From a plasmid, in the sequence record NZ_CP090789.1: a DNA stretch of 64,000 bases, one strand, 5' to 3'. Numbering within the stretch: the first letter of the stretch is position 1; every line of letters begins with the position of its first letter. A program made the translations under genes and the position numbers. The notes below the pieces were generated by a model, which was given only the letters and a program-made list of their open reading frames with translations, did not search any database and had not been told where the DNA came from. This document shows positions 7,437-26,828 of the stretch, piece by piece.

Positions 7437-7871
7437 ATGTCACGTCCCGAATGGTTGGCGGTTCGGTTGCAGTTCATCAAGGGTCTGAATTCTCCGACCG
7501 AAGCACAGCGGCTGCTCGTTGAATTGGCTGAGCGGCCCGAACTCGACAAGTCTGACGCGCGGGTGCTCGACCAGTTGATGCGGATGGAACGTATCAACAT
7601 GAAGGCCGATGAGGCGAAGGCGGAGACGGAAAAGCTTCTGCGCGCGCGCCGTCTTGAACAAGATAGGGCGCGCGCGAAGGCACACGCGGAGTTGGGTGCT
7701 GTGGTGGCGGGAGTCGGATTTCCGCTGGAGCGGGACTTGTTGGCGGGCGTGCTGCTCGAAGCGCTCGAACGCCTCAAGGCCGACCCGGCGTTGCGCACGG
7801 GTTGGAGTTCGCGCGGCGTGGCACAGGCGAAGCCAAGCGATGCGGAGGAGAAAAAGGCCGACGCGGCCTAA
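7437..7871 (+). CDS. Small relaxosome-accessory-like protein (TraC/TraD/MobC-position gene), divergent from traA across oriT
   Basis: 144-aa ORF from the internal ATG with a GAGGT RBS. The listed ORF starts earlier at 7260, but the upstream part has no RBS and overlaps the oriT region. The protein is acidic/coiled-coil. Assignment is by position only. Confidence 0.45.
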   Translation: MSRPEWLAVRLQFIKGLNSPTEAQRLLVELAERPELDKSDARVLDQLMRMERINMKADEAKAETEKLLRARRLEQDRARAKAHAELGAVVAGVGFPLERDLLAGVLLEALERLKADPALRTGWSSRGVAQAKPSDAEEKKADAA

Positions 7872-7928
7872 GCCGGGTCGGCCCTGCATTGCTTCTTCGG
7901 TGGCCCGGTCTAACGGGCCACCGTGTCG

Positions 7929-9920
7929 TTACTGACCGTCCGGTGCGTCTGCTGCTTCCGCCTCACGCGTCGGGTGTTCGATCGGGAAAGTCGATTCCCG
8001 ATTCGTCAGCACATCTGGAAGCCATCCCGATTCAACCAGTTGCATTTCGGCCGCTGCGGCGGCATCTCCCTTCTTCATCGAACCCAGCGGCATTGCGGCC
8101 GTCGCCGAAACCGCCTGTGCCATTACATCGACGATGCGCTGTTTCGACACGTGGTTGAGGTAACTCGTCTGCGTCGGCTTCCAGTAGCGCACCATGTCCA
8201 CGTCGAGCACGTCGGCCAGCGTGTTGACGGCGTGCGGCTTGTTCTCCCGCGCGATTCCGTTGACCATCGCCGCAACGCAGAAGGCAAACAGGCCCGACAG
8301 AGTGTCGTCTGTCGCTTCCAGCAGCCACGGCAGCAAGTGGCGCAGTTCGTTCGGCATCGTTGCCGCCCATTTCGTGCGCTCGGCGTCGATGATCCGCCAT
8401 GCCGTACTGTCGGTCATGTCATCCGCAACGCTGGAGAGTTGGTCCAGACTCGGCCGGAAAGTCGCTTCGAGCGCGTGGTATTCGCGCCAATGATCGTCAA
8501 ACTGTTCCTCGAACACGTCAGGAATCATCGTGTACAAGAGGTAGGCCATCGCCACGTCCGGGCGCTTCGCAAGCTCCGCCTGCACAGCAGCAGTGCGATG
8601 AGCAGTCAGCCGAACGCAGAGAGTTTCGCTGTGGACGGGGCGGGCTTTCGTCGTCCGCTCGGCCTGCTCGCCGTGCTGACCACCGGAAACAGCGGCGGCG
8701 ACTTCCTGCGGTTTGACAACGCCGCGCCTGACTTCAAGTTCGCCATTTGCGTCGATCCAGACTTGCGCGCCAGCACCGGCTTTTTGCTCGTCGGTCCATA
8801 CCTCACAACGTTCTTCGAACGCGTCCAGCGCTGCCTGAGCGTCGCGCACGGCTTGATGGAGCACGTCGCCGTCGGCGTCCGAATCTTCCGTATCGTAGTG
8901 CGCGTCGAGCGCAGCATCCGCACTCTGGCACGCCTGTTCCAGCTTGCGATGTTCCGCTTTCTCCTTCTTCGTCAGTTCGCGGCGCTCCGGGTCCAACTGG
9001 CGCACACGCATCGCCATGAGCGCCTCTCGTCGTACTGCCGCGTCCACCCACGCCCAACCCTCGGCGCGCACTTCCTCGGCGGCGGCCGTCAGCTTTTCCA
9101 CGGCAAGGCGGTTTAGCAATTCGAGGTCGGCCACAAATCCGCCGTTTCCGTCGCCGCTGAACAGGTCGCGTCGCACATATCCGCCCGCGTCCTCGTAGGC
9201 GTCGAGGCCGATGAATCGCGCGAGGGAATTCGTGGCCGCATTCACTTCGGCTTTGGTGATGACCGCCCGAATCTCGCGGGGGCTGCGCTGCCACTCCTGA
9301 ATCGATTCGAACCAAATCCGCTCTTGTTGTTCGGTGTCGTCGGACAGTGCGAGCGCGCACGCCTGCTCGTAATCCATCCCGTCATCACGAAACACTTCTA
9401 GCAGCTTCGGCGAAATGTTCGCCAGCTTCAATGCGCGACGGACAACCGTTTCTGACACGGAAAACCGAGCGGCAATGTCGGGAATTGATCGGCCCTCCGC
9501 AATGAGTTCGCGGAACGCGACGCACTGGTCGGCGATGTGCATCCCTTCGCGCTGGACGTTCTCCGCAAGCGAGATCGCCAGCGCTTCGCCGGCGGAGACG
9601 ATCAGCACGGGCACGAGATCCGTATCCGACCAGCGGCCTCGGGATTTCAGGAGGTCCAGTCCGCCCAAGCGGCCTTGGCCGGCGCAGATTCCGAACGGAC
9701 GAAGGCCGTTCCTTTGTCCATCTTCATCGATCGGATGCCCTACGAGGTTTTGCAGCAAGCCGTTAGCGTCGATGTCGTCAGCAAGCGCGGGGATGTTCTT
9801 GGCGGGCTTCTTCCGCACGTTGCGGGGTGACACGCACAGCTGGCCAAATGGGATGTAGTTGATTTTCCCGAACGTGTACGGGACGGGGTTGGCGAGGATC
9901 GTATCTGCTACTTGGTTCAC
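7929..9920 (-). CDS. Large ParB/Srx-domain (ParB-like nuclease domain) protein of plasmid leading regions
   Basis: About 664 aa from GTG 9920 with a GGAGA RBS. The N-terminal ParB-like box (GLLQNLVGHPIDEDG...RRAL..A) is recognisable, followed by a long acidic C-terminal region. The ORF track extends the start to 9962 through the inverted-repeat arm. Confidence 0.7.
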   Translation of the reverse strand: MNQVADTILANPVPYTFGKINYIPFGQLCVSPRNVRKKPAKNIPALADDIDANGLLQNLVGHPIDEDGQRNGLRPFGICAGQGRLGGLDLLKSRGRWSDTDLVPVLIVSAGEALAISLAENVQREGMHIADQCVAFRELIAEGRSIPDIAARFSVSETVVRRALKLANISPKLLEVFRDDGMDYEQACALALSDDTEQQERIWFESIQEWQRSPREIRAVITKAEVNAATNSLARFIGLDAYEDAGGYVRRDLFSGDGNGGFVADLELLNRLAVEKLTAAAEEVRAEGWAWVDAAVRREALMAMRVRQLDPERRELTKKEKAEHRKLEQACQSADAALDAHYDTEDSDADGDVLHQAVRDAQAALDAFEERCEVWTDEQKAGAGAQVWIDANGELEVRRGVVKPQEVAAAVSGGQHGEQAERTTKARPVHSETLCVRLTAHRTAAVQAELAKRPDVAMAYLLYTMIPDVFEEQFDDHWREYHALEATFRPSLDQLSSVADDMTDSTAWRIIDAERTKWAATMPNELRHLLPWLLEATDDTLSGLFAFCVAAMVNGIARENKPHAVNTLADVLDVDMVRYWKPTQTSYLNHVSKQRIVDVMAQAVSATAAMPLGSMKKGDAAAAAEMQLVESGWLPDVLTNRESTFPIEHPTREAEAADAPDGQ

Positions 9921-10127
9921 GGTTTTTCTCCGGTTATCGCCTACAGCACACCGCCGAGGCATAAAATAATTATAGGACGAAACGTCCTTATAGTGTCGGA
10001 TTTAAATAAAACCCACAAACCTTTATCGGGTATTCATATTATTTTGCGTATAGGGACGAAACGTCCTATAATTACAACCATGCCCTAGCGATTCCGCCGT
10101 GGGCGATAACCGGAGAAAAACCGTGAA
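9916..10127. promoter_or_regulatory. Divergent control region bounded by perfect 26-bp inverted repeats that contain the RBS and GTG start of both flanking genes; it holds two copies of a 13-bp core GGACGAAACGTCC inside TATAGGACG-AAA-CGTCCTATA palindromes
   Basis: Seen directly. Arm 9916-9941 is the exact reverse complement of arm 10102-10127 (GGCGATAACCGGAGAAAAACCGTGAA). Palindromic sites lie at 9971-9992 and 10049-10072. Both divergent ORFs therefore begin with the same peptide (G)DNRRKTVNQV. Confidence 0.7.
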
Positions 10128-10542
10128 TCAAGTTGAACTGGAAGTGAAGCGTTACGAGTGGCCCGATCATCAGCGCGCGGCCTTCTTCCCGCATTATCTG
10201 AAGCGTCGAGCGGCATGTGCGCAATTGGCCGTCGTGCGCTGGGCCAAAATTCTGTTCCCGGCCTATACGACGTCCGGCTGGCACTTTTATGGGCTGGAAT
10301 CCAAGGGCTTCTATGTCGCTCCGCTGCTGCTGAAGGACGAACAAATCGAAGTCGGTGGCCACCGCATGAGCGCCGATGCGTTCGGCGTACTGGTTACGCT
10401 GGCGGCTCTGGAGGAAATGGGGGAGTCGGAACTGTTCACCGCGTTGCATGGCTTTGCTTGCCTTCACGATGAGGCACGGGCAATTCTCGGCGGCGGTGAG
10501 ATCGCCCGCGACGAGATGATTTCGGCAGAAATTCCGTTCTAA
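10123..10542 (+). CDS. Hypothetical protein divergent from the ParB-like gene; possible KlcA/ArdB-like antirestriction protein (weak)
   Basis: About 139 aa from GTG 10123 (or GTG 10099), with an RBS identical to that of the ParB-like gene. Size and leading-region context fit small antirestriction proteins, but no motif is confidently recognised. Confidence 0.45.
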   Translation: MNQVELEVKRYEWPDHQRAAFFPHYLKRRAACAQLAVVRWAKILFPAYTTSGWHFYGLESKGFYVAPLLLKDEQIEVGGHRMSADAFGVLVTLAALEEMGESELFTALHGFACLHDEARAILGGGEIARDEMISAEIPF

Positions 10543-10583
10543 CGACATGAGGCAACCCGGCGGAAACGCCGGGCTAAGGCACA

Positions 10584-10787
10584 ATGATCTATTCGATTAG
10601 CGAAGTAGAGGCCGCGATCAACATCTGGCGGAACCGGCTCGAATCTGGCGACGATGCGGCGCTGTGCGCCCCGGCGCGTGCGCTGGCCGAGCCGTACGGG
10701 CTGATGGTGTATGAAGGTCGCGAAACGATCAGCGATCATGAGATGACGGCGAAGGCTCGCGAAGCAATGGCTGTGCTCGTTGCCTGA
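10584..10787 (+). CDS. Small hypothetical protein (67 aa)
   Basis: ORF with a weak RBS and a codon-usage-consistent frame. No recognised domain. Confidence 0.3.
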   Translation: MIYSISEVEAAINIWRNRLESGDDAALCAPARALAEPYGLMVYEGRETISDHEMTAKAREAMAVLVA

Positions 10788-11105
10788 CGCCGCCTGCGCG
10801 ACGAGTGCAGCGCGGATACCCGCGATAGACCCTGTGCTTGCCGCGGGCGAGGGGAGACCCTCCCTCCTGCAAGCCGGGGTTTTGTTGCTCGACCAGGTGT
10901 CGCGCGCGCCGCGCGCCCGGATCGAGGCGCACGGGTGCCCCGCGCCCGCGTAGGCGGGCGCAAGGGAGAGCGCCGGCCCGCCGCAACGCGGCGGGACGAT
11001 CCGGCTCAGCCTTCGATTATCGGCATGGGGTAGTCAAGCGGCCGTGAGGCCGCGTGTTTCCTCCGCGGCGAAGCCGTGGGGGCTGGATATGGGATGGACT
11101 GAAAA

Positions 11106-11381
11106 ATGACGCAAGATCTACGGGCCACTGTGCGGCCCGAATGTTTGCAACCGGCGCGACTGTGGATGGAACCGACGGCGGGTGAAATCCGCCTGGTGCT
11201 CGATCGCTGCGGATTCACGCGACGAAACGCAAGCATTTTCCTCGGCATCGAAGAGACCGGCCGAAGCGTGGGCCGCTGGCTCAGCGGGGAGCACTCGATT
11301 CCCTATTCGGCCTGGGCGCTGCTTTGCGCCCGGGCCGGTCTCGGAAACATATGGGAAGAGGGCGGCACCGACGCGTCGTAG
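11106..11381 (+). CDS. Small helix-turn-helix DNA-binding protein (XRE/Cro-like)
   Basis: 91 aa. The segment IRLVLDRCGFTRRNASIFLGIEETGRSVGRWLSGEHSIPYSAWALL looks like an HTH. Confidence 0.45.
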   Translation: MTQDLRATVRPECLQPARLWMEPTAGEIRLVLDRCGFTRRNASIFLGIEETGRSVGRWLSGEHSIPYSAWALLCARAGLGNIWEEGGTDAS

Positions 11382-11741
11382 CGTCGGCTCCGCCCGCGGC
11401 TTCTATACCTTCATGTTCGCGTGAGAGGGTTTGTTTTCGATCGCGCCGGCGCCGATCAGGTCACCGGCCTGGTCGGCGCCGGCGCGATCGAATTACGAGG
11501 ACGGTGATGCCGGCCTTCAAACGCGGCCGCGGAACATTTGGCCGGCGCGGAAGGCTGCACGCATCGCGTGTTCGATATCGGAAATGCGAACCTCCTCCGG
11601 CGTGTACTCCGGAATTTCGCGGTCAATGATCGGATGGCCAAAGGTTGATTCGGCGATTGCGTTCAACACAGCGTCAACAAGGTAGCGTTCCATGGTATGT
11701 CCAGTTCGGTGGCCCGCGGCGCTTGGCGCCGCAGGCAGTTT

Positions 11742-12386
11742 TTAGGCAGCGATGGCGAGGCGGTCGATCTCTAGCCGGTCGCAAGCAGCGGCGTAGTAGG
11801 TCGGATCGAGCTCGATGCCGATGTAGTAGCGGCCGAGCTCGCGCGCGGCAACGCATGTCGAGCCCGACCCAGCGAACGGATCAAGGACGACGTCGCCAGG
11901 GGCCGTGTACGTCTCGATGAGTCGCTTGAGGCACGGAACCGGCTTCTGCGTGGGATGGTGCCGATTGCCGGAATATTCCCAGCGCATCACGTCAGGCAGC
12001 GGCGTAGCCGGCACAGCCGGCTGGCCCTTCGCGAGCACGTACGCGGATTCGTGGCGGTACGCGACAAAGCGCGATTTCGACGCATAGGACTTCGCGAAAA
12101 CGATGTGGCCGACGACGCGCAGGCCCGCGCGCTTCCACGCGTCGAAAAAGCGGTCCGTTTTCGTCCAGCCGTAGAAGCTCACGCAAAGCGTGTTCGGCTT
12201 CATGACGCGGTACACCTCCGCGAATGCCGGCGCCAGCCAGTCCGATTTCACATCGTTTGCGATCGAGCGCCCGGAGCGATCGTGATAGTTGACGAGATAG
12301 GGCGGGTCAGTCAGGACGAAGTCGACCACGCCGTCCGGAATGGACGGCAACACTTCCAGGCAGTCGCCGTTATAGAGAAAGCTCAT
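11742..12386 (-). CDS. Orphan beta-class DNA methyltransferase (N6-adenine or N4-cytosine type)
   Basis: 214 aa. The DPPY catalytic motif (motif IV) precedes the FAGSGST SAM-binding motif (motif I), the beta-class order. No restriction endonuclease partner is visible nearby. Confidence 0.85.
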   Translation of the reverse strand: MSFLYNGDCLEVLPSIPDGVVDFVLTDPPYLVNYHDRSGRSIANDVKSDWLAPAFAEVYRVMKPNTLCVSFYGWTKTDRFFDAWKRAGLRVVGHIVFAKSYASKSRFVAYRHESAYVLAKGQPAVPATPLPDVMRWEYSGNRHHPTQKPVPCLKRLIETYTAPGDVVLDPFAGSGSTCVAARELGRYYIGIELDPTYYAAACDRLEIDRLAIAA

Positions 12387-12807
12387 GTATGCGCTCCACA
12401 GTTGGGGGGCGGATAGCGCGTTTCCGTGTGCGGCTCCGAAATGTCGCTACCCGGCGCTTGCGAGCGCCGCGCAGGGGTTGCCGGTCAAGGGACCGTGGAA
12501 TAACGGGGAGGCAGTCCGTAGGAGGGCACCGTTTATGCCGCGAAAGCCCTTGAAAGAGTGGGCGCGCGCCGGAGCGTGCGGGCCCGTTCTGGCCGGCGAA
12601 ACCAGCGCGGCGATCGTTTGCGACGGGTAGCGACATCCATTTAGAACCCCGGGCGCTTTATCTCCTTTCGGGCGTGGTTAGAGCCACTAGCCGAGGCCTG
12701 GAGGGGGAGGTTCGGCGTGCGGTTACTCATGAGGGCGGGCCTCGGTTTATGGGCCGCCCGATCTGGAGTGCGCCGCGCGCCCGGAAGGGGATAGGCTGCG
12801 GGCTGTG

Positions 12808-12826
12808 ACCATCGTCGATGCTCAGG
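12808..12826 (-). terminator. GC hairpin GCCCCGGC-atg-GCCGGGGC immediately downstream of the 12858 stop; candidate intrinsic terminator with a weak U-tract
   Basis: Seen directly: perfect 8-bp stem with a 3-nt loop, about 30 nt after the stop of the fused methyltransferase gene. Confidence 0.35.
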
Positions 12827-12857
12827 AACAGGCCCCGGCATGGCCGGGGCTTCGAAA

Positions 12858-14831
12858 TTACGCCGTCAGGATCATCAGCGCGGTATTGACGGAGCTTGCA
12901 GACTCGGCGAACGTATCGGCCGGCAGGTCCACCCACTCTCCACCGTGGGCCGCCACGAGACGCTGAAGCGCTTCACGCCGGCGCGGACCATTCGCGCAGA
13001 CCGCCACGAGTCGGCCACCTGGCTTGAGCATCTCGAGCGCATGCCGAATATGCCGAATGTCATCGCCGTGCGAGAACGGTGGGTTCATGACGATCCGGTC
13101 GAATGGTGTCGGCGCCACGTACGTGAGGAAATCCGTGTTGATCACGTCGGCGCCGGCCTCGCTGACGCGCAGGTGATCGCACAGGCGGGCGCTGATCTCG
13201 ACGGCGGTCCGCACCGCAGCGCCACCCGTCGCCTCGCGGATCGCGCGCAGGATCCGGCCGGTGCCGGCACTCGGTTCGAGAACGGTATGTCCCGGCTCGA
13301 TCGCGGCCAGCTCGACCATGCGCGCAGCGAGTGATACGGGCGTGGGGAACAGCTGCGAGGCGCTCACGACCTGCACCCCATGCTTCAGCTGCTCACGCAT
13401 TGCATTGAACTGCGCGCCGTCGTCGCCGGCGGCCGCGTGCTCAGTCGTCGAGCCGTTCGTCGGAACGGTGGTCACATCGCTCGGGCGCTCGACGGATGCG
13501 GCTGCCGTGAGATCCGGCGCGGCGAGCTCATCCGTGTTTCCAGCCGGCGAGATTGCCGGCGGGTTGACGCGTTTAACGTCGGTCAGGTAGACCGCCACCA
13601 ATGCACCGCGGTGGACCACCGAACGCACGCGGTGCCGGCCGACCGCGCTAGCGACGTCCGCTGCGCCCTTGATGTCCGGCCGATACCTGCCCGGTCGAAC
13701 GGCGCCGGCGCCGAGCTCGCGCGAACCCTTGTAGTCGCGATGCGTGGCGTCCCATTCGGCCTTGGTCATTGCGTGAAAGCCGGTACCGGGGTAGTTGCAA
13801 AGGGGCGGCAGCTTGCTTGCTGCCTTCACCGTGGCCGCCACTTCGGCGGACGGAGCGCGGTAGTCCTTGATTTCTTCGATGCCCCGTACCGGCACGAATC
13901 GCGCGTTGGTGGTCACGCTGCAGATTGCGCCGGCGGAGCGATTCACGCGCGTCACCACAAGCCACTCGCCGCGTACGAGTACCTGGCCCCCGGGCACGAT
14001 GTCGAAACCATCGGCCTTGATGCCGCCTTGTTCCGCGAGCATCGCGCGCTCGTAGTTCAGTCGGCAATCGTAATGCGCAATCCAGCGTTCCCAATGTGCG
14101 CGATTACGTCCTTCACGCTCGAGGTACTGGTCACAGGTCGCGCGGAAGTTATCGGGGTCCGCGTTGATTGCGCTCCAAAGGCCGTGCAGACTCGACGCCG
14201 AAGCCACCATGAGGGCACGCTCTGCGGTCAGCGTCGGCGATCGCAGCGCATCAGCTGCAGCCTTCAGGAGATCGAGGCTACGCGTGCACTTGCGGCGGTC
14301 GGCCTCGATGCGCTTAATCCGACGATGGCGGACGTCCGCACGCTCCTTGTATTTCGCGTGTTGCAGCGCCCCCGCTGCGCGGCGCTCCCAATATTCGTGG
14401 GTGTCCCACATCGAGACCGCTTTGCGCATGGCGTTGTCGATGCGCTCCGCATCGCGTCGCGCGCGGGCTTCGCTGTGGTGACCGACCAGGATCGGCTGAC
14501 CGAGTGGGATATGCTCGGTGATCGATGTGACGACGGCATGCGCGGCCTTCGCGTCCGCCGCGCGCCGTTCGCTATAACCATCGAATCGGTCGGCACGCTC
14601 TTCCGCGCGTTCGACGAGCGACGTGTCCTCGTCGTCGATTTCGCCGCACAGCTCGATGAGAAGATCTTCGCGGGCCGGCGTCCAGCTCGGCGCGACGAAC
14701 AGATCCTGTTTCGGCGCGAACCGGAACCCGGCATCGTGAACACGTCGATACAGGCCTTCCTCGAGGCGCGCGGTGCTGTACAGACGCAGCTTGTTGTCGT
14801 CGGGGGAATAGGTTGCCGTCAGGTGTTGCAT
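12858..14831 (-). CDS. Fusion protein: conserved plasmid-associated N-terminal domain (DUF3560-like) plus a C-terminal class I SAM-dependent methyltransferase with an NPPF motif
   Basis: 657 aa from ATG 14831, with a GGAG RBS 5 nt upstream (the ORF track extends to 14987 without an RBS). The C-terminus has motif I VLEPSAGTGRIL and motif IV NPPF, which are amino-methyltransferase signatures. The N-terminal ~400 aa match my memory of DUF3560 proteins found next to methylases on plasmids. Confidence 0.7.
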   Translation of the reverse strand: MQHLTATYSPDDNKLRLYSTARLEEGLYRRVHDAGFRFAPKQDLFVAPSWTPAREDLLIELCGEIDDEDTSLVERAEERADRFDGYSERRAADAKAAHAVVTSITEHIPLGQPILVGHHSEARARRDAERIDNAMRKAVSMWDTHEYWERRAAGALQHAKYKERADVRHRRIKRIEADRRKCTRSLDLLKAAADALRSPTLTAERALMVASASSLHGLWSAINADPDNFRATCDQYLEREGRNRAHWERWIAHYDCRLNYERAMLAEQGGIKADGFDIVPGGQVLVRGEWLVVTRVNRSAGAICSVTTNARFVPVRGIEEIKDYRAPSAEVAATVKAASKLPPLCNYPGTGFHAMTKAEWDATHRDYKGSRELGAGAVRPGRYRPDIKGAADVASAVGRHRVRSVVHRGALVAVYLTDVKRVNPPAISPAGNTDELAAPDLTAAASVERPSDVTTVPTNGSTTEHAAAGDDGAQFNAMREQLKHGVQVVSASQLFPTPVSLAARMVELAAIEPGHTVLEPSAGTGRILRAIREATGGAAVRTAVEISARLCDHLRVSEAGADVINTDFLTYVAPTPFDRIVMNPPFSHGDDIRHIRHALEMLKPGGRLVAVCANGPRRREALQRLVAAHGGEWVDLPADTFAESASSVNTALMILTA

Positions 14832-14865
14832 GTGTGCTCCAGGTTGGTTTTTGCTGACCGGGACC

Positions 14866-15335: not shown

Positions 15336-15702
15336 ATCCGGTTGCTCCGGGCCATGAGAAAAGGGGCTTTCGCCCCTTCCCTTACCGCAGCACCACGCAC
15401 ATGCGCCGTGGTGTCCACCAGACCAGAAGCGCGTATTCATTGCTGAAAAACTCCGCGTTGTCGTGGTCGATGTAGATCACTGGATCGATCATGGTCATCT
15501 CCTTTAAATGTGGGACCGCGAACATGCGGTCCCATCTTTATTTATGCGTGCACGCCGAATCGGCGCAAAAAATCCGGGCCGCCGACAACTACCCGAACTC
15601 GACCGGCCGCGCCGGTGCTGCGCAAGCCATGCCTCGGCAGTTCTTGCCGCCGCTAAGGCGACCGGTCTGTCTGCCCACCGGGGCACGTGTCCTCTGCCTC
15701 CA

Positions 15703-18098: not shown

Positions 18099-18139
18099 GC
18101 TCTTCCTCTCTGGCGTACCGCGCGACGCGGTGTTAGCTG

Positions 18140-19152: not shown

Positions 19153-19678
19153 GACAAGCATAGCGACTAAGCGCTGCTCGCCAGTTTTCTGGCGACCTGA
19201 AAACGATTGATGAATACAATTATGTAAAATTATGGATACCTAATCGATTTGAGTCCCGCCAGCGCCAATGAAATATCGATTCCGCGACACCGCATCGACC
19301 GATCGGGTATCCACCTGCGTCGACCGGCCAACGCGACCGTACTAGATTCCCGTGTCAGAGGACCGTCATGCGCCGAGCTTCAAATTGCAGCTTGCTACCG
19401 TCCGCAAACACACAGATGTCCACGCACAGTTGCGGAGCCTCTATCGCTACAGCGAGGTCACACGCGGTGTCAAATGCTCTGCACACGTCGGCGTCCATGC
19501 TGATGCACTCGGCGGTGGTGTATTGCGGTCGGTCCATCATCCTTTCCCTGTTTTCCGGTATCCGTGCGCTTTAGCGGCGGTTGTCGCCTTCGATGATCAG
19601 AAGCCTCGCGTTTTCCTTCCAAATTGCATTAACGGCCTCAGCGACTGCTTCTGACAAAATAATAGTACCGCTGCGGTA

Positions 19679-20122
19679 CTATGTCAAAGCTTTTATCAGT
19701 TGCTCAACAATCTGGGGAGCAAGCGTCACGCCGCGGGCGCTCAACTCTGCCGGTAGTACGGTGCGCATCATGTGACGGCGCACTGCCAAGGGGATACGCT
19801 CCAGTGCATAACCGGCTTCTGCCATTTTGGCGGGCCAATTATGTCGGTATGCCGTGCCGCACGCAGCATTGATCTCGTCAAGGGTTTGCTTGAGCGGTTT
19901 GCCAGCGGCCGCCTCAATTTCCAGCCAGCGCTCGAAGAGGCCTTTAGAGAGTTTATCTAGTACCATAGCGGTACTGTATACCATACGCGCCGTCAAATAG
20001 TCTCCTCGAAGATTCGGGACAGAATGGCGCGGCCCAGAAAAGCAACCATCGGATAATTCGGCGCCGCGCCGATCCGGTACCCTTCCACCGTATCGCAATA
20101 TCTCGGCGATGATCGTGCTCAC
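19679..20122 (-). CDS. Hypothetical protein in a lower-GC patch; possible remnant of a recombinase N-terminal domain
   Basis: ORF in an AT-richer segment flanked by AGTACC-N5-GGTACT palindromes. Weak resemblance to integrase core-binding/SAM-like domains. Low confidence. Confidence 0.3.
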   Translation of the reverse strand: MSTIIAEILRYGGRVPDRRGAELSDGCFSGPRHSVPNLRGDYLTARMVYSTAMVLDKLSKGLFERWLEIEAAAGKPLKQTLDEINAACGTAYRHNWPAKMAEAGYALERIPLAVRRHMMRTVLPAELSARGVTLAPQIVEQLIKALT

Positions 20123-20441
20123 TGAACTACAAAACCTACAGGCTCAACTTCGCGAATTGAATGCTCGGCTCGCGGACGTGAAGAACGACGAAAGGCAGGC
20201 GTATTTAGCCCGAGTCCAGGAACACGTTGCCCTCTACGGCATTACCGAAGATGAACTGCTCTGCGCAGCTGGCTTCCGGAAAGCGCGCAGATCGCGGGCG
20301 CAAGCGAAGTACTACGACCCCTCGTCGGGTAAGCAATGGTCTGGATTCGGCCCGCGACCGAAATGGCTGGAAGGCAAGAATCTCGACGACTACCTGATTG
20401 AGCGTGCTGCGAAACCGTGGTGGCCCGGAGAAGACGCCTGA
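20109..20441 (+). CDS. hns: H-NS family nucleoid-associated protein (plasmid-borne 'stealth' H-NS-like)
   Basis: 110 aa with an N-terminal coiled-coil and the C-terminal motif KYYDPSSGKQWSGFGPRPKWL, typical of H-NS/Bv3F DNA-binding domains. An AT-rich upstream region precedes it. Confidence 0.75.
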   Translation: MIVLTELQNLQAQLRELNARLADVKNDERQAYLARVQEHVALYGITEDELLCAAGFRKARRSRAQAKYYDPSSGKQWSGFGPRPKWLEGKNLDDYLIERAAKPWWPGEDA

Positions 20442-20571
20442 CGACGCGCGCAAGTGAATTTCGCACCGATAGAGTGCTCCACGGTCGGGGCTTACCTGAC
20501 GACAGCGATCGCCACCGGCAACCCGATACTTGCGTTACCCTGTTTCGGTACGGTTGCCCTGGGAGTCGGCG

Positions 20572-21483
20572 ATGTGCTATTCGGCAAAGATCCAAACCAA
20601 CTATCGTGAGTACGCGCGACGTTACGGTGCCGACATGGACATCGAGACATTCCGCCATCTGTTCTTCGCGCGCGCGGCCGGAAGCGACATCAGAATTCCG
20701 AAGGCGGTCGACGCGGCGCTCGTAGGTGTCGACGAAGAAATCTCGGCGGCGATCGCTGCGTATCGAAGCCAGCGAACACGGAAGCTGGAGACCGATCTGT
20801 TCGAGCAGCGAGCGCGCCTCGCCGCGGCCGAGAAGAAGCTCGCCGTGAAGACCACGAAGAAGGCGACCGAGGACGTCCGGATCGCCACGGACAAGATCGA
20901 TGCGGCAACGCGCGGGCTCGACGATCTTCGCCGGCAGGACCTGCAGGAGCGTGATTCGCGGATCTTCCCCGGCTGGTATGCGCCCGTGCTGATCGAGCTC
21001 GAAGGCAAACGCCTAGTCGTGCCGATGCGGTATCGGTGCCGCATACCGGGCTGGACCGAGGCGGACGAAAAACAGAAGCCGGCAACCTATAATGCCCGCT
21101 CGGATTCGCTCGCCACGGCCTGGCGCAAGGTCTTCGGCTTCACGCATGGGCTCCTGCTCGTCGACGCTTTCTTCGAAAACGTGCGGCGCGACGGCCAGAA
21201 CGTCGTGCTTCGCTTCGACCCGACGCCCCCGCAACACATGCAAGTCGCCTGCCTGTGGACCCGCACCGAGATCCCTGGCGCCGACGATTTGTGGTCGTTC
21301 GCGGCGATTACCGACGACCCACCGCCGGAAGTGGCGGCAGCGGGCCACGACCGATGTATCGTCCCCATTAAATCCTCGAATGTTGACGCGTGGCTCGCAC
21401 CACATCCAAGCCGGCGCGCGCAGCTGCGCGAGATCCTGGCCGACCGCGAGCGGCCCTACTACGAGCACCAGCTCGCAGCGTAA
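20572..21483 (+). CDS. SOS response-associated peptidase (SRAP/YedK family) with a ~100-aa coiled-coil insertion
   Basis: Start MCYSAK (the catalytic Cys2 after the initiator Met is the SRAP hallmark) with a GGAG RBS. Conserved NARSDSL...LVDAFFE and FPGWYAP motifs align to YedK. An insertion lies between the N-terminus and the core. Confidence 0.6.
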   Translation: MCYSAKIQTNYREYARRYGADMDIETFRHLFFARAAGSDIRIPKAVDAALVGVDEEISAAIAAYRSQRTRKLETDLFEQRARLAAAEKKLAVKTTKKATEDVRIATDKIDAATRGLDDLRRQDLQERDSRIFPGWYAPVLIELEGKRLVVPMRYRCRIPGWTEADEKQKPATYNARSDSLATAWRKVFGFTHGLLLVDAFFENVRRDGQNVVLRFDPTPPQHMQVACLWTRTEIPGADDLWSFAAITDDPPPEVAAAGHDRCIVPIKSSNVDAWLAPHPSRRAQLREILADRERPYYEHQLAA

Positions 21484-21518: not shown

Positions 21519-21538
21519 TACTGTACAAACATACAGTA
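21519..21538. promoter_or_regulatory. LexA (SOS) box TACTGTACAAACATACAGTA (CTGT-N8-ACAG) upstream of imuA
   Basis: Seen directly, between the SRAP stop (21483) and the imuA start (21557). It matches the E. coli/Betaproteobacteria LexA operator consensus. Confidence 0.7.
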
Positions 21539-21556: not shown

Positions 21557-22273
21557 ATGCACCCCGCCCTCGCCCATCCTGAAGTCATCCACCCGGCCCT
21601 CTGGCGCGCCAGTCAGCTGGCGCGCTCGAGCGTGCGCGGCGTCGACACGGGCCATCCGGAACTGACGGCCGAACTGCCCGGCGGCGGCTGGCCGGCCGGC
21701 GCGCTGATCGAGCTGCTCGCGCCGCAGCCGGGCATCGGCGAGCTTCGGCTGCTGGCGCCGGTGCTCGCGCGCGCGGCCGGCAAGCCGGTCGTGCTGATCC
21801 AGCCGCCGCATGCACTGCAACCGCTGGCGCTCGCGTACTGGGGCATCGACCCGTCCGGGTTCGTGACGCTGCCGGCGCCGCGAACGGCCGACGCGCTGTG
21901 GGCCGCCGAACAGGCGCTGCGTGCCAGCACGTGCGCTGCCGTGCTGCTCTGGCAGCCGCATGTCCGTGCGGACGCATTGCGGCGACTCAACCTGGCCGCG
22001 CAGAGCGGCCAGGCGCTGTTCTACCTCTTCCGGCCGGCGGCCGCCGCGCGCGATGCGTCGCCGGCGCCGCTGCGGCTCGCGCTGGCGCCGAAGCGTGACG
22101 GCATCGATGTCACGTTCGTGAAGCGCCGCGGGCCTGCACGCGATGCGCCGCTGTTCGTTCCCTTGTCACCCTCGCCGATTTTGTTGAACCGCCATGCAAG
22201 TCTGGATCGGCGTGCATCTGCCGCACCTCAACCTCGAAGTGTTCCGGCCGCGATCGCCGGCGCCGTCGCCTGA
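21557..22273 (+). CDS. imuA: ImuA (SulA/RecA-fold translesion-synthesis accessory protein)
   Basis: Motifs ALWRASQLAR...LPGGGWPAGALIELL are typical of ImuA. It is the first gene of the cassette downstream of the LexA box and overlaps the imuB start. The ORF-track start at 21092 is an out-of-frame-like extension into the SRAP gene. Confidence 0.7.
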   Translation: MHPALAHPEVIHPALWRASQLARSSVRGVDTGHPELTAELPGGGWPAGALIELLAPQPGIGELRLLAPVLARAAGKPVVLIQPPHALQPLALAYWGIDPSGFVTLPAPRTADALWAAEQALRASTCAAVLLWQPHVRADALRRLNLAAQSGQALFYLFRPAAAARDASPAPLRLALAPKRDGIDVTFVKRRGPARDAPLFVPLSPSPILLNRHASLDRRASAAPQPRSVPAAIAGAVA

Positions 22274-23672
22274 CGATGCGCGCGGGCTCGTCGTGCTCGA
22301 GGGCGGCCGCGTCGTGGCGCTCGATCGCGCCGCGCGTGCGCTCGGCGTGGTCGCCGGCATGCGCCGCGGTGGCGTGCTCTCTCTCGCACCGGACGCGCAG
22401 ATCCGCGAGCGTGACGCCGCGCGCGAGCGCGAGCTCGTGCTCGGGGTTGCTTATGCGCTCCTGCAGTTCACACCGAGCGTCGTCGACGCCGAGGAAGCCG
22501 TGGTTGTGCTCGACGTGACCGCGAGCCTGCGCCTGTTCCACGGCATCCGCGCGCTGCGCCAGCGTGTGCGCGATGTCGTCGCGTCGTTCGGCGTCACCGC
22601 GGCGATATCCGTCGCGTCCTCGGGTCCGGCCGCGTGGATGGTCGCCCGCGGCCTGCGCGGCGGCCTCGCGCTGTCCGCGCGATCGCTGCGCCGCGCGCTC
22701 GCGCGCGTGCCTCTCGTCGTTGCGCCGGACGCCCGGCGCTACGCGAACTGGTTCGAGGATCTCGGCTGCGAAACGCTCGCCGATCTGCAGCGCTTGCCGC
22801 GCGCCGGGTTGAAGAAGCGATGCGGCACGCAACTGCTCGACTGGCTCGACCAGGTCGCCGGCACCGCGCCGGCCGCCTACGACTGGCTCGAAATGCCGCC
22901 GTCGTTTGACACGCGCGTCGAACTGATGGACCGCGTCGAGCACGCCGAGGCGCTGCTGTTCGTCGCGCGCCGGCTGATCCTGCAGCTGACCGGCTGGCTC
23001 ACCGCTAAGCAGCTGGACGTCGCCGCGTTTGCACTCCTGCTCGAGCACGAGCGCGGGCGGGACGCGATCGCGCCGACCGAGATCGAAATCGCGTTGGGCG
23101 CCCCTACCCGCTTCGAGGAGCACCTCACCCGGCTCGTCAAGGAGCGGCTCGGCCACGTCGAGCTCGCCGGGCCCGTGATTGCCGTGCGCCTAGTCGCCCA
23201 CAGCGTGCAGGAAGCTGCCGCGCCGAGCGACTCCCTGTTTCCCGAGCCCGGTGGCACGCCGCAGGATCACGCACGGCTGCTGGAACTGCTGACGGCGCGG
23301 CTCGGCTCCGAGAACGTACTCGTCGCAGCTCCCATGGCCGACTACCGTCCCGAGCCGGCCGCCCGATGGGTGCCGATGCGTGACGCGCCGAAGCCGTCGC
23401 CGCTGCCGTCGGACCTGCCGCGTCCGGCCTGGCTGCTTGGCAGGCCTGTGCCGTTGCTCACACGCGAGCATCGCCCGTTTTACGGCACGCCGCTGCGCAT
23501 GGTGTCGCCTGGCGAGCGCATTGAAGGTGGCTGGCAGGATGGGCAGACCGTGACGCGCGACTACTTCGTCGCCGAGGACGACAACGGCATCTGCTACTGG
23601 ATCTACAAGGAGCGGCCGACGGCCAGCGACGAAAGCGACGCGCGCTTCTTCCTGCACGGCCTGTTCGGCTGA
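22194..23672 (+). CDS. imuB: ImuB (inactive Y-family polymerase-like protein)
   Basis: The N-terminus MQVWIGVHLPHLNLEVF resembles ImuB. 492 aa. It sits directly upstream of dnaE2. Confidence 0.8.
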   Translation: MQVWIGVHLPHLNLEVFRPRSPAPSPDDARGLVVLEGGRVVALDRAARALGVVAGMRRGGVLSLAPDAQIRERDAARERELVLGVAYALLQFTPSVVDAEEAVVVLDVTASLRLFHGIRALRQRVRDVVASFGVTAAISVASSGPAAWMVARGLRGGLALSARSLRRALARVPLVVAPDARRYANWFEDLGCETLADLQRLPRAGLKKRCGTQLLDWLDQVAGTAPAAYDWLEMPPSFDTRVELMDRVEHAEALLFVARRLILQLTGWLTAKQLDVAAFALLLEHERGRDAIAPTEIEIALGAPTRFEEHLTRLVKERLGHVELAGPVIAVRLVAHSVQEAAAPSDSLFPEPGGTPQDHARLLELLTARLGSENVLVAAPMADYRPEPAARWVPMRDAPKPSPLPSDLPRPAWLLGRPVPLLTREHRPFYGTPLRMVSPGERIEGGWQDGQTVTRDYFVAEDDNGICYWIYKERPTASDESDARFFLHGLFG

Positions 23673-23678: not shown

Positions 23679-26600
23679 ATGGACGCCGGCAGCTTCGGCG
23701 CCCTGCCCGCGTACGCGGAACTTCAGGTCGCCTCCGATTTTTCGTTCCTGCAGGGCGCGTCACGCGCGGAGGAATACGTCGCGCGCGCGGCGCAGCTCGG
23801 CTACAGCGCGATCGCGATCACCGACGAGTGCTCGCTCGCCGGCGTCGTGCGCGCGCACGTCGAAGCGAAGGCAGCGAACATGCCGCTGATCGTCGGCTCG
23901 CACTTCCGGCTGACGGCCGCGGACGGCGCGCCCGCGCTCGCCTTCACTGCGCTGGCGATGAATCGCGACGGTTACGGCAACCTCTGCGAATTCATTTCGC
24001 TCGGTCGCATGCGCGGCAAGAAAGGCACGTACCGGCTGGCGCCACTCGATCTCGAACACCCGGAAGCGCCGTACACGCACCTGCGCGGCCTGCCCGACTG
24101 CGTCGCGATCCTGTCGCCCGACTTCCCAGCCAACGAGCAACGCCTTGACGCGCAGGTCGAATGGTTCGCGCGCGTGTTCGGCAATCGCGCATGGGTCGCG
24201 CTGACGCTGCACGCACGCGCGATGGACGACATCCACCGCGGCGTGGTCGAGCGCGTCGCCGCGCGGCACGGCGTGCCCGTGGTGGCCACCAGCTGGCCCC
24301 TCATGCACGTGCGATCGCGCAAACCGCTGCAGGACGTGCTGACGGGGATCCGGGTCGGCCGGCCGGTATCGGAGTGCGGGTACGAGCTCGCGCCGAACGC
24401 GGAGCGTCACCTGCGGTCGCGTCTGCGGCTCGCCAACCTCTATCCCGCCGGCGCGCTCGAGGAAACCGTACGCGTCGCGCGGCGTTGCACGTTTTCGCTC
24501 GACGACCTGAAGTACGAGTATCCGGATGAACTGGTACCGGCCGGCACCGATCCGGCGACGTACCTGCGCGAGCAGACCTACATCGGCGCGCGCCGGCGCT
24601 TTCCGGCCGGCATCCCGATCGACGTCCAGGCGCAGATCGAACACGAGCTGCAGCTGATCGCCGACCTGAAATACGAGGCGTATTTCCTGACCGTCTACGA
24701 CATCGTGCAATTTGCGCGCGAGCAAGGCATCTTGTGCCAGGGACGCGGCTCGGCTGCGAACTCGTCCGTTTGCTACTGCCTCGGCGTGACCGAGGTCGAC
24801 CCGTCGCGGCAATCGATGCTGTTCGAACGGTTCATCAGCAAGGAGCGCAACGAGCCGCCGGACATCGACGTCGATTTCGAGCATCAGCGTCGCGAAGAGG
24901 TCATGCAGTACATCTACCGCAAGTACGGCCGCGATCGCGCAGCGCTCACGGCCGCCGTCACGACATACCGGCCACGCAGCGCACTACGCGAAGCCGGCAA
25001 GGCGCTCGGCGTGGATCCGGCGATCGTCGATCGCGTCGCGAAGCAGCACCACTGGTTCGATTCGCGCGCGGATCTGCTGCAGCGTTTTTCCGAGGCTGGC
25101 CTCGACCCCGACGCGCCGCTGAATCAGCAGTGGGCCGCATTTGCCGCGCAGCTGCTCGGCTATCCACGGCACCTGTCGCAGCATTCGGGCGGCTTCGTGA
25201 TCAGCCGCGGCAAGCTCACGCGGCTCGTACCGGTTGAAAACGCAGCGATGGAGGATCGCTCGATCATCCAGTGGGACAAGGACGACATCGAGGCGCTCGG
25301 GATTCTGAAGATCGACGTCCTGGCCCTCGGGATGCTGTCGATGGTACGCCGCGCGCTCGACATGATCTCGGAGAAACGCGGCGAGACATTCGAGCTGCAG
25401 GACATTCCAGCCGAGGACAAGGCGACCTACGACATGCTGTGCGATGGCGACAGCATGGGCGTGTTCCAGGTGGAATCGCGCGCGCAGATGTCGATGCTGC
25501 CGCGCCTGCGGCCGCAGTGCTTCTACGACTTGGTGATCGAAGTCGCGATCGTGCGGCCGGGCCCGGTGCAAGGCGGGATGGTGCATCCGTTTCTGCGCCG
25601 GCGCCAGGGGCTGGAGCCCGTCACGTTTCCGTCGGAAGGCATGGAGAAGGCGCTGGCTCGCACGCTCGGCGTGCCGATCTTCCAGGAGCAGGTGATGCAG
25701 GTCGCGATGCTGGCGGCCGGCTTCTCCGCCGGCGAGGCCGACCAGCTGCGCCGCGCGATGGCGGCATGGAAGCGCAAGGGGGGCCTCGAGCCGTACCACG
25801 AACGCCTGGTGAGCGGCATGCTCGAGCGCGGCTACGATCGCGAGTTCGCGGAATCCATCTTCGCGCAGATCAAGGGCTTCGGCGAGTACGGCTTTCCGGA
25901 GAGCCACGCGGCCAGCTTCGCGCTGCTCGTCTACGCGAGCGCCTGGCTGCGCCGACACGAGCCGGCCGTGTTCCTGGCCGCGCTGCTCAACAGCCAGCCG
26001 ATGGGCTTTTACACGCCGTCGCAGCTCCTGCAGGACGCGCGGCGTCGCGGCGTTGAGGTGCTGCCCGTCGACGTCAACGTGAGCACATGGGATTCGGCGA
26101 TCGAAGGCCCGACAACGTCGGCGCCCGTGCGTCTCGGCTTCTCGCTATTGCGCGGCATGCGCGAGGACGTCGCCGGCCGCATCGAGCTCGCACGCGCTGC
26201 GCGGTCATTCGTCGACGTCGCGGATCTCGCGCGCCGCGCGCGGCTTGATCGGCACGACCTGCAGGTGCTCGCGCGCGCGAACGCCCTCCGCTCACTCGCC
26301 GGCGGCAATCGACGCGCCGCGCTCTGGCTGGCCGCCGCCGCGGTCCCCGATCGGGATCTGCTGCGCGGCACCGAGCGCGACGACGCGGTGCCGGCACTGC
26401 CGCAAGCATCGGAAGGCGCGGAAATCGTGACGGACTATCGTTCGATGGGCTTCACGCTCGGCCGGCATCCGCTGGCGCTGCTGCGCGAACGCCTGGCGCT
26501 CGATCGCCTGCAGTCGGCCGAACAGCTGCAGACGTTGCGCAGTGGCCAGCTCGCGCGCGCGTGCGGACTGGTTACGGTACGGCAGCGGCCGGGCACGGCG

Positions 26601-26828
26601 AACGGCGTACTGTTCATGACGCTCGAGGACGAGACCGGCCAGGTGAATGTGATCCTCTGGCCCGGCCTGCTGGAAAAGTTTCGGAAGGAAGCGCTCGGCG
26701 CCGCGCTGCTTGCCGTCTATGGTGTATGGCAGGCCGAAGGGAAGGTGCGGCATCTGATTGCGAGCAAGCTCGTCGACAGAACTGAACTACTCGGTGCACT
26801 GCCGACGACGTCGAGGGAGTTTTGTTAA
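23679..26828 (+). CDS. dnaE2: Error-prone DNA polymerase DnaE2 (ImuC)
   Basis: 1049 aa. It has the N-terminal PHP motif [17 protein letters not shown], polymerase III alpha core motifs and an OB-fold C-terminus. It is the third gene of the imuA-imuB-dnaE2 cassette. Confidence 0.9.

Follow-up and report, generated by a model that had tools for sequence, protein, structure and literature searches.

The stretch of DNA analyzed here, hereafter the window, comprises 64,000 nucleotides (nt) of the plasmid record NZ_CP090789.1, and the interval examined, 7437-26828, extends from a relaxosome accessory gene beside a putative origin of transfer (oriT) to the end of a translesion-polymerase cassette. 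The interval contains an island of genes that are read toward oriT from the minus strand, each transcription unit being preceded by a long inverted repeat that can fold as a hairpin in the plus strand, and this combination of genes and hairpins is the subject of the present analysis.

Judged by its sequence matches, the window comes from a plasmid of the Burkholderia type. Among the plasmids in the collection, pINT23 of B. pseudomultivorans matches it best (89% identity across 40% of the query), and pB1701 of B. contaminans is 93% identical along window positions 11.7-19.1 kb. Other segments match a replicon that carries ParA, a cluster for a type IVb pilus, and a type IV secretion system. As the genes for the coupling protein, the type IV secretion system, and the type IVb pilus lie within or adjoin the window, the plasmid appears to be self-transmissible.

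Genes and hairpins of the island

The sequence has 60-70% GC, which gives rise to many spurious open frames, and gene calling based on the GC content of third codon positions (GC3) was unable to separate the real frames from the spurious ones. Given this, the gene calls were anchored to matches in Pfam, NCBIfam, and PHROG, and to the annotated coding sequences (CDS) of relatives mapped by tblastn, and one IncQ1 plasmid and one IncI plasmid were used for the comparison of the oriT layout and of the IncI loci. The minus-strand genes and the hairpins that precede them are as follows.

7929-9920, minus strand: ParB-like protein of 663 amino acids (aa), homologue of YfhA
9910-10133, plus strand: hairpin before the parB-like gene (fold as single-stranded DNA -63 kcal/mol, z = -12.4)
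11517-11693, minus strand: open frame of 58 aa, match to DUF6900 below the cutoff (E 0.0011)
11742-12386, minus strand: orphan beta-class N6-adenine DNA methylase of 214 aa with a DPPY motif (Pfam N6_N4_Mtase, E 1e-36)
12441-12636, plus strand (the predicted transferred strand, or T-strand): hairpin of 196 nt immediately upstream of the 214-aa methylase (z = -4.1)
12858-14831, minus strand: protein of 657 aa with DUF3560 and a C-terminal gamma-class (NPPF) N6-adenine DNA-methylase domain (Pfam)
14846-15288, plus strand: element copy 1, hairpin core 14930-15107, upstream of the DUF3560-methylase (z = -5.7)
15047-15052 and 15069-15074, plus strand: hexamers TTGACG and TACGGT in the right arm of copy 1
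15703-17502, minus strand: phosphoadenosine phosphosulfate (PAPS)-reductase/DndC-like protein of 599 aa (Pfam PAPS_reduct, E 2e-8)
17508-18098, minus strand: Cys-rich protein of 196 aa with 9 Cys, first gene of an operon with the DndC-like gene
18130-18571, plus strand: element copy 2, hairpin core 18213-18390, upstream of the Cys-rich/DndC-like operon
18330-18335 and 18352-18357, plus strand: hexamers TTGACG and TACGGT of copy 2

The ParB-like protein aligns end to end with YfhA of the IncI plasmid in BLASTP (31% identity, E 9e-69), and it is also matched by the NCBIfam ParB models and by phrog_7783 (E 1e-86). The 214-aa methylase shares 60-65% identity with the "DNA methylase" found in over 5000 plasmids, most of them conjugative and enterobacterial, and 60% with yfbB of the IncI plasmid, and by this homology it appears to be a member of the M.EcoGIX/M.BceJIII family, which has a single-strand-specific, promiscuous N6-methyladenine activity and shields pESBL on entry (PMC7736820). 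In the larger methylase, whose start was taken from a 95% identical CDS of pB1701, Pfam recognizes DUF3560 (E 7e-37) as well as the methylase domains, and its C-terminus is similar both to M.TaqI and to methylase domains in giant phage proteins. The DndC-like protein also matches PRK06850, and a sequence search of the PDB returned no relative of it. The Cys-rich protein has no family match in Pfam, NCBIfam, or PHROG; its residues 6-117 match a separate 117-aa leading-region open reading frame (ORF) of Paraburkholderia dioscoreae pI and its residues 87-196 a separate small ORF of pBPSE01, so that it looks like a fusion of two small leading-region ORFs. The published table of leading-region families lists the ParB, the DUF3560/methylase-domain, and the PAPS-reductase families (Samuel et al., Nature 2024, PMC11541004).

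From 7.9 to 18.1 kb, all five genes of at least 196 aa are on the minus strand, with approximately 7.0 kb of coding sequence on this strand versus 0.9 kb on the plus strand, whereas over the whole interval 7437-26828 the plus-strand coding sequence (approximately 8.4 kb) exceeds that of the minus strand (approximately 7.0 kb). The minus-strand bias that an initial annotation had described from the accessory gene onward is therefore found in the first of these spans, and not in the whole interval. Even there, five co-oriented genes alone provide weak statistics (p about 0.03), and the bias becomes convincing only when the relatives are considered: in pBPSE01, at least 30 consecutive annotated genes lie on the oriT-facing strand, interrupted solely by one short gene before the relaxase operon, and P. 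dioscoreae pI has a run of 45 consecutive oriT-facing genes. In the window, the orientation expected of genes transcribed off the T-strand is seen in both methylases and in the ParB-like, DndC-like, and Cys-rich genes, and it is not seen in the antirestriction, DUF3717, and XRE-like genes described below.

The minus-strand genes listed in that annotation, as well as H-NS, SRAP, and imuABC, were all found where it had placed them, with the support of Pfam, NCBIfam, or relatives, although its gene list was incomplete, given that it had missed four plus-strand frames (the PF03230 gene, the DUF3717 gene, the XRE-like ORF, and an ORF of 148 aa). The small ORF that it had proposed at 11517-11693 does exist as an open frame, although its support is weak, as the DUF6900 match is below the threshold, the ribosome-binding site is weak, and no counterpart was found in the loci of the closest relatives. 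The observation was thus confirmed in part and its interpretation supported in part, and the strongest evidence is a feature absent from that annotation, the hairpin elements before each minus-strand unit.

A number of other frames were rejected. The minus-strand ORFs at 7440-7889 and 10072-10584 have no family match and overlap plus-strand frames that are annotated in relatives and carry the TraD-like and the antirestriction match, respectively, and those at 12370-12636 and 12641-12841 are probably non-genes, given that they overlap a conserved hairpin and have no family support.

A family of strand-specific hairpins

In a repeat search, every minus-strand transcription unit proved to have a long inverted repeat immediately upstream of it, and two of these structures, copies 1 and 2, form a direct repeat of about 450 nt with 96% identity. 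When the 64-kb window was folded as DNA in sliding segments of 220 nt, 19 of the 25 most over-stable plus-strand segments fell within 7.7-18.7 kb, and the corresponding list for the minus strand contains neither the methylase-upstream hairpin nor the two element hairpins. Segments that are unusually stable as single-stranded DNA (ssDNA) on both strands were seen at 3441-3700, left of the relaxase, and at 40800-41260, the latter adjoining the replication/ParA region, where it may represent origin-related repeats.

The repeated element matches 251 plasmids in PLSDB, 223 of them typed as conjugative, at up to 14 places per record and in no case under an annotated feature, in hosts which include Burkholderia, Pseudomonas, Citrobacter, Enterobacter, Klebsiella, Salmonella, Ralstonia, and others. 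Profile searches with nhmmer recovered the element 11 times in pBPSE01 and 13 times in P. dioscoreae pI, always in one orientation, each copy directly upstream of an oriT-facing gene and within co-oriented runs of 30-45 genes. An exact-pattern scan of one genome per species added at least 120 stretches in Beta- and Gammaproteobacteria, and many of these belong to chromosomal contigs. In 77 copies sampled from these stretches, the element is followed first by an ORF for a DUF932 protein in 56 cases and for a ParB protein in seven, and the following start codon is usually 89-139 nt away; in the window, the repeat reaches within 15-32 nt of the start codon, which means that it includes most of the leader.

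Single chromosomal copies were seen in Variovorax, Comamonas, Achromobacter, Delftia, Pseudomonas, Stenotrophomonas, and others, almost always just upstream of a DUF932 gene that is followed by a ParB-like gene, and they may mark the leading end of integrative conjugative elements. No Rfam family corresponds to the element in a scan of 7-27 kb at E <= 1, which returned only chance microRNA-hairpin matches, and the element profile finds no match in the IncI leading locus, which carries ssb, psiB, and ardA. Its conserved motifs are not in the supplementary text of Samuel et al. (PMC11541004), and no description of the element was found in the literature searched.

The structure of the element is supported by its pattern of variation. 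Among 29 aligned copies, the arms pair in 95.4% of the cells, versus 34-50% with slid partners, and changes on both sides of a pair account for 81 cells, versus 26 +/- 4 in shuffled alignments (0 of 500 shuffles reach 81). Columns 104 and 201, for example, hold CG in ten copies, GC in seven, and UA in seven, and such covarying pairs sit in the variable spacer, whereas the blocks CCTTGAC and CTAC(A/G)GTCGCG of the right arm are invariant or nearly so and read as TTGACN, a 16-nt spacer, and TAC(A/G)GT. In a broader set, 75 of 76 copies have the -10-like hexamer exactly 17 nt beyond CCTTGAC, and it is TACAGT in 40 copies and TACGGT in 26. A consensus computed by RNAalifold on a 79-sequence MAFFT alignment was poor because the arms had been misaligned, and single-sequence DNA folds were used for that set instead.

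The element is also asymmetric with respect to the two strands. For all 28 distinct plasmid copies, the predicted T-strand gives the more stable fold, with a mean difference of 9.3 kcal/mol, and the same holds for 78 of the 78 copies of the broader set, with a mean difference of 11.7 kcal/mol, and G.T pairs outnumber A.C mismatches in the helices by about 98 to 16. The -35-like hexamer lies nearer the loop and the -10-like hexamer nearer the stem base, an order which makes the right arm of the folded structure the non-template strand and implies that the left arm would be read toward the stem base and into the minus-strand gene. Frpo/ssi promoters have been described as working on this principle (PMC7736820, PMC12672017). 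Given these features, the element is best read, on its sequence, as a further class of ssDNA promoter.

The two other hairpins of the island do not belong to this repeat. The structure at 9910-10133 is a near-perfect palindrome of 224 nt between the parB-like gene and the ardB gene, with TTGCGT (10044-10049), a 17-nt spacer, and TATAAT (10067-10072) in its right arm, and it is equally stable on both strands (-62.8 versus -60.9 kcal/mol). As a duplex, this promoter-like sequence would drive the plus-strand antirestriction gene, and as a hairpin it would drive parB. Both arms of the palindrome hold a ribosome-binding site and the first four codons, with the ParB-like and the antirestriction protein both beginning VNQV, and this duplication hints that recombination at a hairpin inverted the antirestriction/DUF3717/XRE block; in relatives, DUF3717 faces oriT.

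The methylase-upstream hairpin, on the other hand, is more stable on the T-strand (-69.4 kcal/mol) than on its complement (-56.9 kcal/mol), and its apex has GACCGTGGAATA and TATGCCGCGAAAGC..CTTGAA in common with the T-strand upstream of the IncI gene yfbB, where the orientation is the same (local alignment z = 5.9). In pESBL, M.EcoGIX is preceded by a hairpin that is a "class 3" ssDNA promoter validated by rapid amplification of 5' cDNA ends, or 5'RACE (PMC12672017). The methylase-upstream hairpin of the window is probably homologous to that promoter and is a candidate of the same class, the comparison having been made through the IncI yfbB region.

Predicted polarity of transfer and proposed expression from the entering strand

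The direction in which the island would enter a recipient depends on the features to its left, which are as follows.

4299-7121, minus strand: relaxase, with a MobA/MobL (MOBQ) N-terminal nuclease domain fused to a RecD-like AAA_30 helicase
7152-7190, plus strand: oriT core, an inverted repeat (7152-7173) and then the predicted nick core
7437-7871, plus strand: relaxosome accessory gene of 144 aa, with a weak Ti-type TraD match, divergent from the relaxase gene

The relaxase is matched in Pfam by MobA_MobL (E 3e-30) and AAA_30 (E 2e-52), and its N-terminal 250 aa match the MobA protein of R1162 (PDB 2NS6) over its full length (E 8e-37), in an alignment which spans residues 2-184 and in which the HxHxM histidine motif is aligned. 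Thirty bases past the relaxase start codon begins the perfect inverted repeat GTTTCTATGCT/AGCATAGAAAC, with arms of 11 bp, followed by GCGTAAGCGCG|CGTT, where the nick is predicted on the plus strand at 7184|7185. The nic substrate of RSF1010 has been defined biochemically as CAGTTTCTCGAAGAGAAACCGGTAAGTGCG/CCCTCCC, with the relaxase remaining on the 3' fragment after cleavage (PMC4814116). The stem base GTTTCT/AGAAAC is identical in the two origins, as is the distance of 11 nt from the repeat to the nick, and the nick cores TAAGCGCG of the window and TAAGTGCG of RSF1010, with a TAAGYGCG core, agree in seven of eight bases. The combined repeat and nick motif has one occurrence in the window, with none expected by chance, and it is kept beside the relaxase of pINT23.

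The gene layout points in the same direction. Following the nick strand of the IncQ1 plasmid from 5' to 3', mobB and repB (the mobA region) are upstream on the opposite strand and mobC is downstream, and the window has the same layout, in which the relaxase gene reads away from oriT and is predicted to be the last to transfer, while the nick strand leads into the accessory gene. The match of this accessory gene to Pfam PF06412 is just above the cutoff (E 4e-5, 23.8 bits, cutoff 22.3), and its counterpart in pINT23 is an annotated plus-strand CDS, 87% identical. The comparison with a characterized MOBQ oriT, through the RSF1010-type repeat, the nick core, and the MobA-like relaxase, thus bears out the orientation in which the plus strand is predicted to enter the recipient 5' end first, with the right side of oriT as the leading region. 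A plus-strand nick at 7184|7185 also means that the minus-strand genes to the right would use the transferred strand as their template.

Quite probably, the segment that runs from the nick to about 19.2 kb constitutes the leading region of a conjugative plasmid of Burkholderia, in which early genes are expressed from ssDNA hairpins. From the observed sequence features, homologies, conservation, covariation, and strand asymmetry, the following course may be proposed, the nick position, the transcription of ssDNA, and the protective functions being its predicted parts. Once the relaxase had nicked at 7184|7185, the four hairpins (9910-10133, 12441-12636, 14930-15107, and 18213-18390) would fold in the entering strand, and the host sigma-70 RNA polymerase would take the left arm as its template and exit at the stem base into the adjacent minus-strand gene. 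The YfhA-like ParB protein, the M.EcoGIX-type methylase, the DUF3560 methylase, and the Cys-rich/DndC-like pair would then be expressed early and transiently, before the synthesis of the complementary strand, and these proteins may modify or shield the incoming DNA from the restriction of the recipient, a role for which M.EcoGIX provides the precedent in the case of the methylases. The formation of the duplex would remove the hairpins and put an end to expression from them, after which conventional promoters would take over; the plus-strand klcA/ardB, DUF3717, and XRE-like genes would be expressed only at this stage, and the LexA-controlled imuABC module would remain outside the early program. 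In pESBL, 5'RACE has validated ssDNA promoters that lie upstream of M.EcoGIX, klcA, ardA, ssb, and psiB (PMC12672017), and Frpo/ssi elements are reported to yield primer RNA as well as mRNA (PMC7736820, PMC12672017).

This double output is also the basis of another explanation, in which the hairpins are single-strand initiation (ssi) signals that serve mainly to prime the synthesis of the complementary strand. The copies in P. dioscoreae pI are evenly spaced and co-oriented every 2-3 kb, as discontinuous priming needs, and strand-specific stability would suit any function exerted on ssDNA, although the near-fixed distance of 89-139 nt to the start codon and the conserved hexamers with their fixed spacing resemble a sigma-70 promoter rather than a PriA or primase site. 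A predominantly priming role is thus rather unlikely, and it would in any case be compatible with a leading region and not exclusive of a promoter, given that Frpo of F does both. It is improbable, in turn, that the region is an ordinary accessory one in which the hairpins are repetitive extragenic palindromic (REP)- or miniature inverted-repeat transposable element (MITE)-like repeats, terminators, or duplex operators of ParB- or XRE-like proteins, with no role in transfer, and just as little probability is given to a co-orientation that results from operon structure or from the direction of replication. In favor of this reading, co-orientation is limited to five large genes and does not extend to four smaller ones, the element is multi-copy in the manner of mobile repeats, and the equal stability of the parB palindrome on both strands is that of a duplex operator or divergent promoter. 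However, in the plasmids examined, no element copy lies outside the span from oriT to the translesion cassette or replicon, the copies have the same orientation and a fixed distance from the start codon, the preference of 78 of 78 copies for one strand is unexpected for a duplex site or a mobile palindrome, and the stem covaries while the promoter-like hexamers are invariant. The hairpins are not the terminators of these genes, since they lie upstream and not downstream of them, and the gene families are those of the IncI/F leading regions.

A reversal of the polarity would make the island the last segment to enter and would place the minus-strand genes on the side that cannot be transcribed. 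Relaxase-proximal leading regions are possible in principle, and the nick is placed by similarity alone, with four bases on its 3' side that are unlike those of RSF1010, but the order of repeat and then nick fixes the nicked strand, with no TAAGNGCG after the repeat on the reverse strand, and the relaxase domain is closely homologous to MobA in an IncQ1 gene layout that is identical. In addition, the strand with the stable hairpins is the one predicted to transfer, and the MOBF relatives that have the same elements arrange oriT, relaxase operon, and leading region in the standard way, which makes the reversal very improbable.

A number of points weigh against the reading of the island as a leading region with ssDNA promoters. 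In the case of the transfer origin, the nick position is predicted by similarity, the bases 3' of it are CGTT in the window and CCCT in RSF1010, and a further relaxase or oriT may be found outside the window on the same plasmid. With regard to the promoters, the hexamers are clear in three of the four hairpins, as the methylase-upstream hairpin has a -35-like TTGAAA and no convincing -10, and the -10-like TACGGT of both window copies is weak; a generic scan for sigma-70 sites and terminators revealed no enrichment of sigma-70 sites, having overlooked the hairpin promoters because it demanded matches at four or more of the six positions of each hexamer. In duplex DNA, TTGACG-16-TACGGT would point away from the gene, and the silence of the duplex is an assumption. 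The structure of the element was scored on the same alignment from which it had been derived, and the shuffle statistics overstate independence, since the copies share descent. Finally, the anti-defense activity of each island gene is predicted from homology, and the ParB-like, DUF3560, and Cys-rich proteins have no assigned function. The DndC-like protein scores 96 bits against NCBIfam DndC TIGR03183 (E 2e-27), far under the cutoff of 290 bits, and Pfam and NCBIfam scans found no dndA, dndD, or dndE partner near its gene in the island, for which reason it is called DndC-like only, and not DndC. The logic of an anti-defense that comes first also fits klcA/ardB poorly, because this gene is so oriented that the T-strand cannot serve as its template; it is the only gene with a well-established antirestriction family assignment, and that logic fits the methylases.

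Plus-strand genes, distal module, and comparison with known systems

The remaining features of the interval are on the plus strand, and the last six of the following lines constitute the module at its distal end.

10123-10542, plus strand: KlcA/ArdB-family antirestriction gene, 139 aa (Pfam PF03230, E 7e-10)
10584-10787, plus strand: DUF3717 small protein, 67 aa (Pfam PF12512, E 2e-21)
within 11106-11381, plus strand: XRE-like small ORF, start probably near 11166 (relatives and PHROG)
18706-19152, plus strand: ORF of 148 aa with an ExoX-C-like N-terminal motif (weak Pfam/NCBIfam matches)
20115-20441, plus strand: H-NS family protein, 84% identical to the annotated H-NS of pBPSE01
20572-21483, plus strand: SOS-response-associated peptidase (SRAP; Pfam SRAP, E 3e-17), 86% identical in pBPSE01
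21521-21536, plus strand: LexA-type SOS box CTGTACAAACATACAG, perfect, 20 nt ahead of imuA
21557-22273, plus strand: imuA, of the imuABC translesion cassette
22194-23672, plus strand: imuB, Y-family-like (Pfam IMS)
23679-26828, plus strand: dnaE2/imuC (Pfam DNA_pol3_alpha)

The antirestriction gene is annotated as "antirestriction protein" in pINT23 and pB1701, where it is 97-99% identical, and its product is 31% identical to that of the IncI gene yfeB/klcA, a distant relation. DUF3717 faces oriT in both pBPSE01 and P. dioscoreae pI, the XRE-like ORF is 97% identical to a pB1701 CDS annotated as an XRE family regulator and matches phrog_8351 (E 4e-16), and the 148-aa ORF is an annotated plus-strand CDS in pB1701. 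Between the convergent XRE-like ORF and the 58-aa frame, positions 11436-11492 form a perfect palindrome with arms of 25 bp and a 7-nt loop, which is highly stable on either strand, has the look of a bidirectional terminator, and drew a chance microRNA match in Rfam. A low-GC segment (about 55%) follows at 19200-20110. It is in this area that the best match to the sigma-70 consensus within 7100-20600 is found, TTGACA, a 17-nt spacer, and TATTAT, on the minus strand at 19687-19659, along with two minus-strand ORFs without a family match, one of 61 aa at 19355-19540 with a good ribosome-binding site and a possible one of about 100 aa within 19679-20122.

The H-NS/SRAP/imuABC genes are a separate plus-strand module that marks the distal end of the island. 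In many Burkholderia plasmids the module travels as one block, independent of the island genes, and its imuA, imuB, and dnaE2 genes, which form one operon behind the LexA box, are 88-95% identical to the annotated genes of pBPSE01. The SOS control that had been attributed to imuABC is supported by this perfect box, one of only two exact matches to CTGT-N8-ACAG in the window; the other, the palindrome CTGTTCAGTTGAACAG at 38022-38037, is outside the island. In pBCJ2315, the imuABC cassette adjoins trfA within the first 50 kb, and this plasmid was discarded as an uninformative comparator for the leading region. Just past dnaE2, the segment 27400-33200 matches the PAAR domain, VRR-NUC, and type VI immunity proteins of Burkholderia plasmids, as well as a VapC toxin with a CopG regulator, that is, type VI secretion-related and toxin-antitoxin cargo.

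The published islands are bounded by oriT and an umuDC-type operon, and 90.3% of these operons are oriented against transcription of the T-strand, with MOBQ elements included among those that show enrichment (Samuel et al., PMC11541004). The initial annotation had regarded the mutagenesis cassette as unusual, but islands of this kind typically end in a translesion-polymerase operon, and since imuABC occupies the boundary in the same opposed orientation as umuDC, the cassette is not an oddity. H-NS, which it had counted among the leading-region genes, belongs to the plus-strand module and is in neither the text nor the supplementary tables of the cited paper. The content that it had recognized as that of an anti-defense leading region is otherwise supported: the ParB-like protein, the 214-aa methylase, and the antirestriction gene that it had missed are homologous to yfhA, yfbB, and yfeB/klcA of the IncI/F plasmids. 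Its statement that the classic genes are lacking is correct for ardA, ssb, and psiB, as the IncI queries for these genes and for psiA gave no match in the window (tblastn, E > 0.05), and incorrect insofar as a KlcA/ArdB-family gene is present.

The island itself is a further example of the published kind, and it extends the logic of anti-defense leading regions to a MOBQ-type plasmid of Burkholderia, a genus that includes cystic-fibrosis and melioidosis pathogens. What varies is the context of a MOBQ/RSF1010-type oriT, the replacement of umuDC by imuABC, and, above all, the widespread class of promoter-like hairpins, a conserved and strand-specific structure present in hundreds of plasmids and chromosomal conjugative elements. 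A broader reading is advanced tentatively, in which the element of about 450 nt would be an undescribed, widespread class of ssDNA promoter that organizes early expression in the conjugative plasmids and integrative elements of Beta- and Gammaproteobacteria, typically before DUF932/ParB operons, and in which its multiplication into 2-14 cassettes in Burkholderiaceae plasmids would place uncharacterized enzymes, a DndC-like protein among them, under the control of entry. If the element is a true ssDNA promoter, it would mark leading regions, and hence polarity, where the oriT is unidentified, it would flag the first genes to be expressed (DUF932, ParB-like, DUF3560-methylase, and DndC-like) as candidates for anti-defense or establishment, and it would offer targets for blocking the establishment of plasmids. 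The DndC-like protein, in that case, might chemically modify the incoming single strand.

The oriT and relaxase find their closest counterparts in RSF1010/R1162 (MOBQ1), with which they share the full-length homology of the relaxase domain, the identical stem base and nick spacing, seven of the eight core bases, and the divergence of the relaxase and accessory genes. The window relaxase, however, is fused to a RecD-like helicase and not to a primase, the arms of 11 bp without a loop replace a shorter stem with a GAA loop, the 3' bases differ, and the plasmid, unlike RSF1010, appears to be self-transmissible.

In the leading regions of IncI1 and F plasmids (ColIb-P9, pESBL, and F), as in the window, the region adjoins oriT on the side opposite the relaxase, transcription proceeds toward oriT off the transferred strand, and long T-strand hairpins precede the transcription units, the apex of the methylase hairpin being common to the window and IncI. 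Homologues of yfbB (60%), yfhA (31%, full length), and yfeB/klcA are present in the window, but ssb, psiB, psiA, and ardA are not, and the klcA-type gene is inverted. The relaxase is of the MOBQ type with an RSF1010-like oriT, and not MOBF or MOBP, the DUF3560-methylase, DndC-like, and Cys-rich genes are additions, and two of the four hairpins are of a family without detectable similarity to the IncI ssb/psiB/ardA locus.

The islands of Samuel et al. likewise contain orphan methylases, antirestriction genes, and uncharacterized genes between oriT and an opposed translesion operon, although in the window the boundary is the LexA-controlled imuA-imuB-dnaE2 operon after H-NS/SRAP, and not umuDC, and no toxin-antitoxin, anti-CRISPR, or SOS-inhibitor genes were recognized in the island. 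In the MOBF plasmid pBPSE01, an oriT, about 25 kb of oriT-facing genes, H-NS/SRAP/imuABC, and the replicon follow one another in an order that repeats the architecture of the window.

Finally, the hairpins of the window resemble the Frpo/ssi (class 1) and the pESBL class 2 and class 3 promoters in that a long, imperfect hairpin would form in the T-strand, with -35- and -10-like sequences in the stem that are clear in three of the four, and in that such hairpins are placed upstream of leading genes and repeated along the region in a single orientation. The Burkholderia-type element differs from Frpo/ssi in having no match in the IncI locus and no Rfam family, in being known here from sequence alone, and in its distribution, which spreads over the plasmids and chromosomal elements of Beta- and Gammaproteobacteria, mostly before DUF932/ParB operons.

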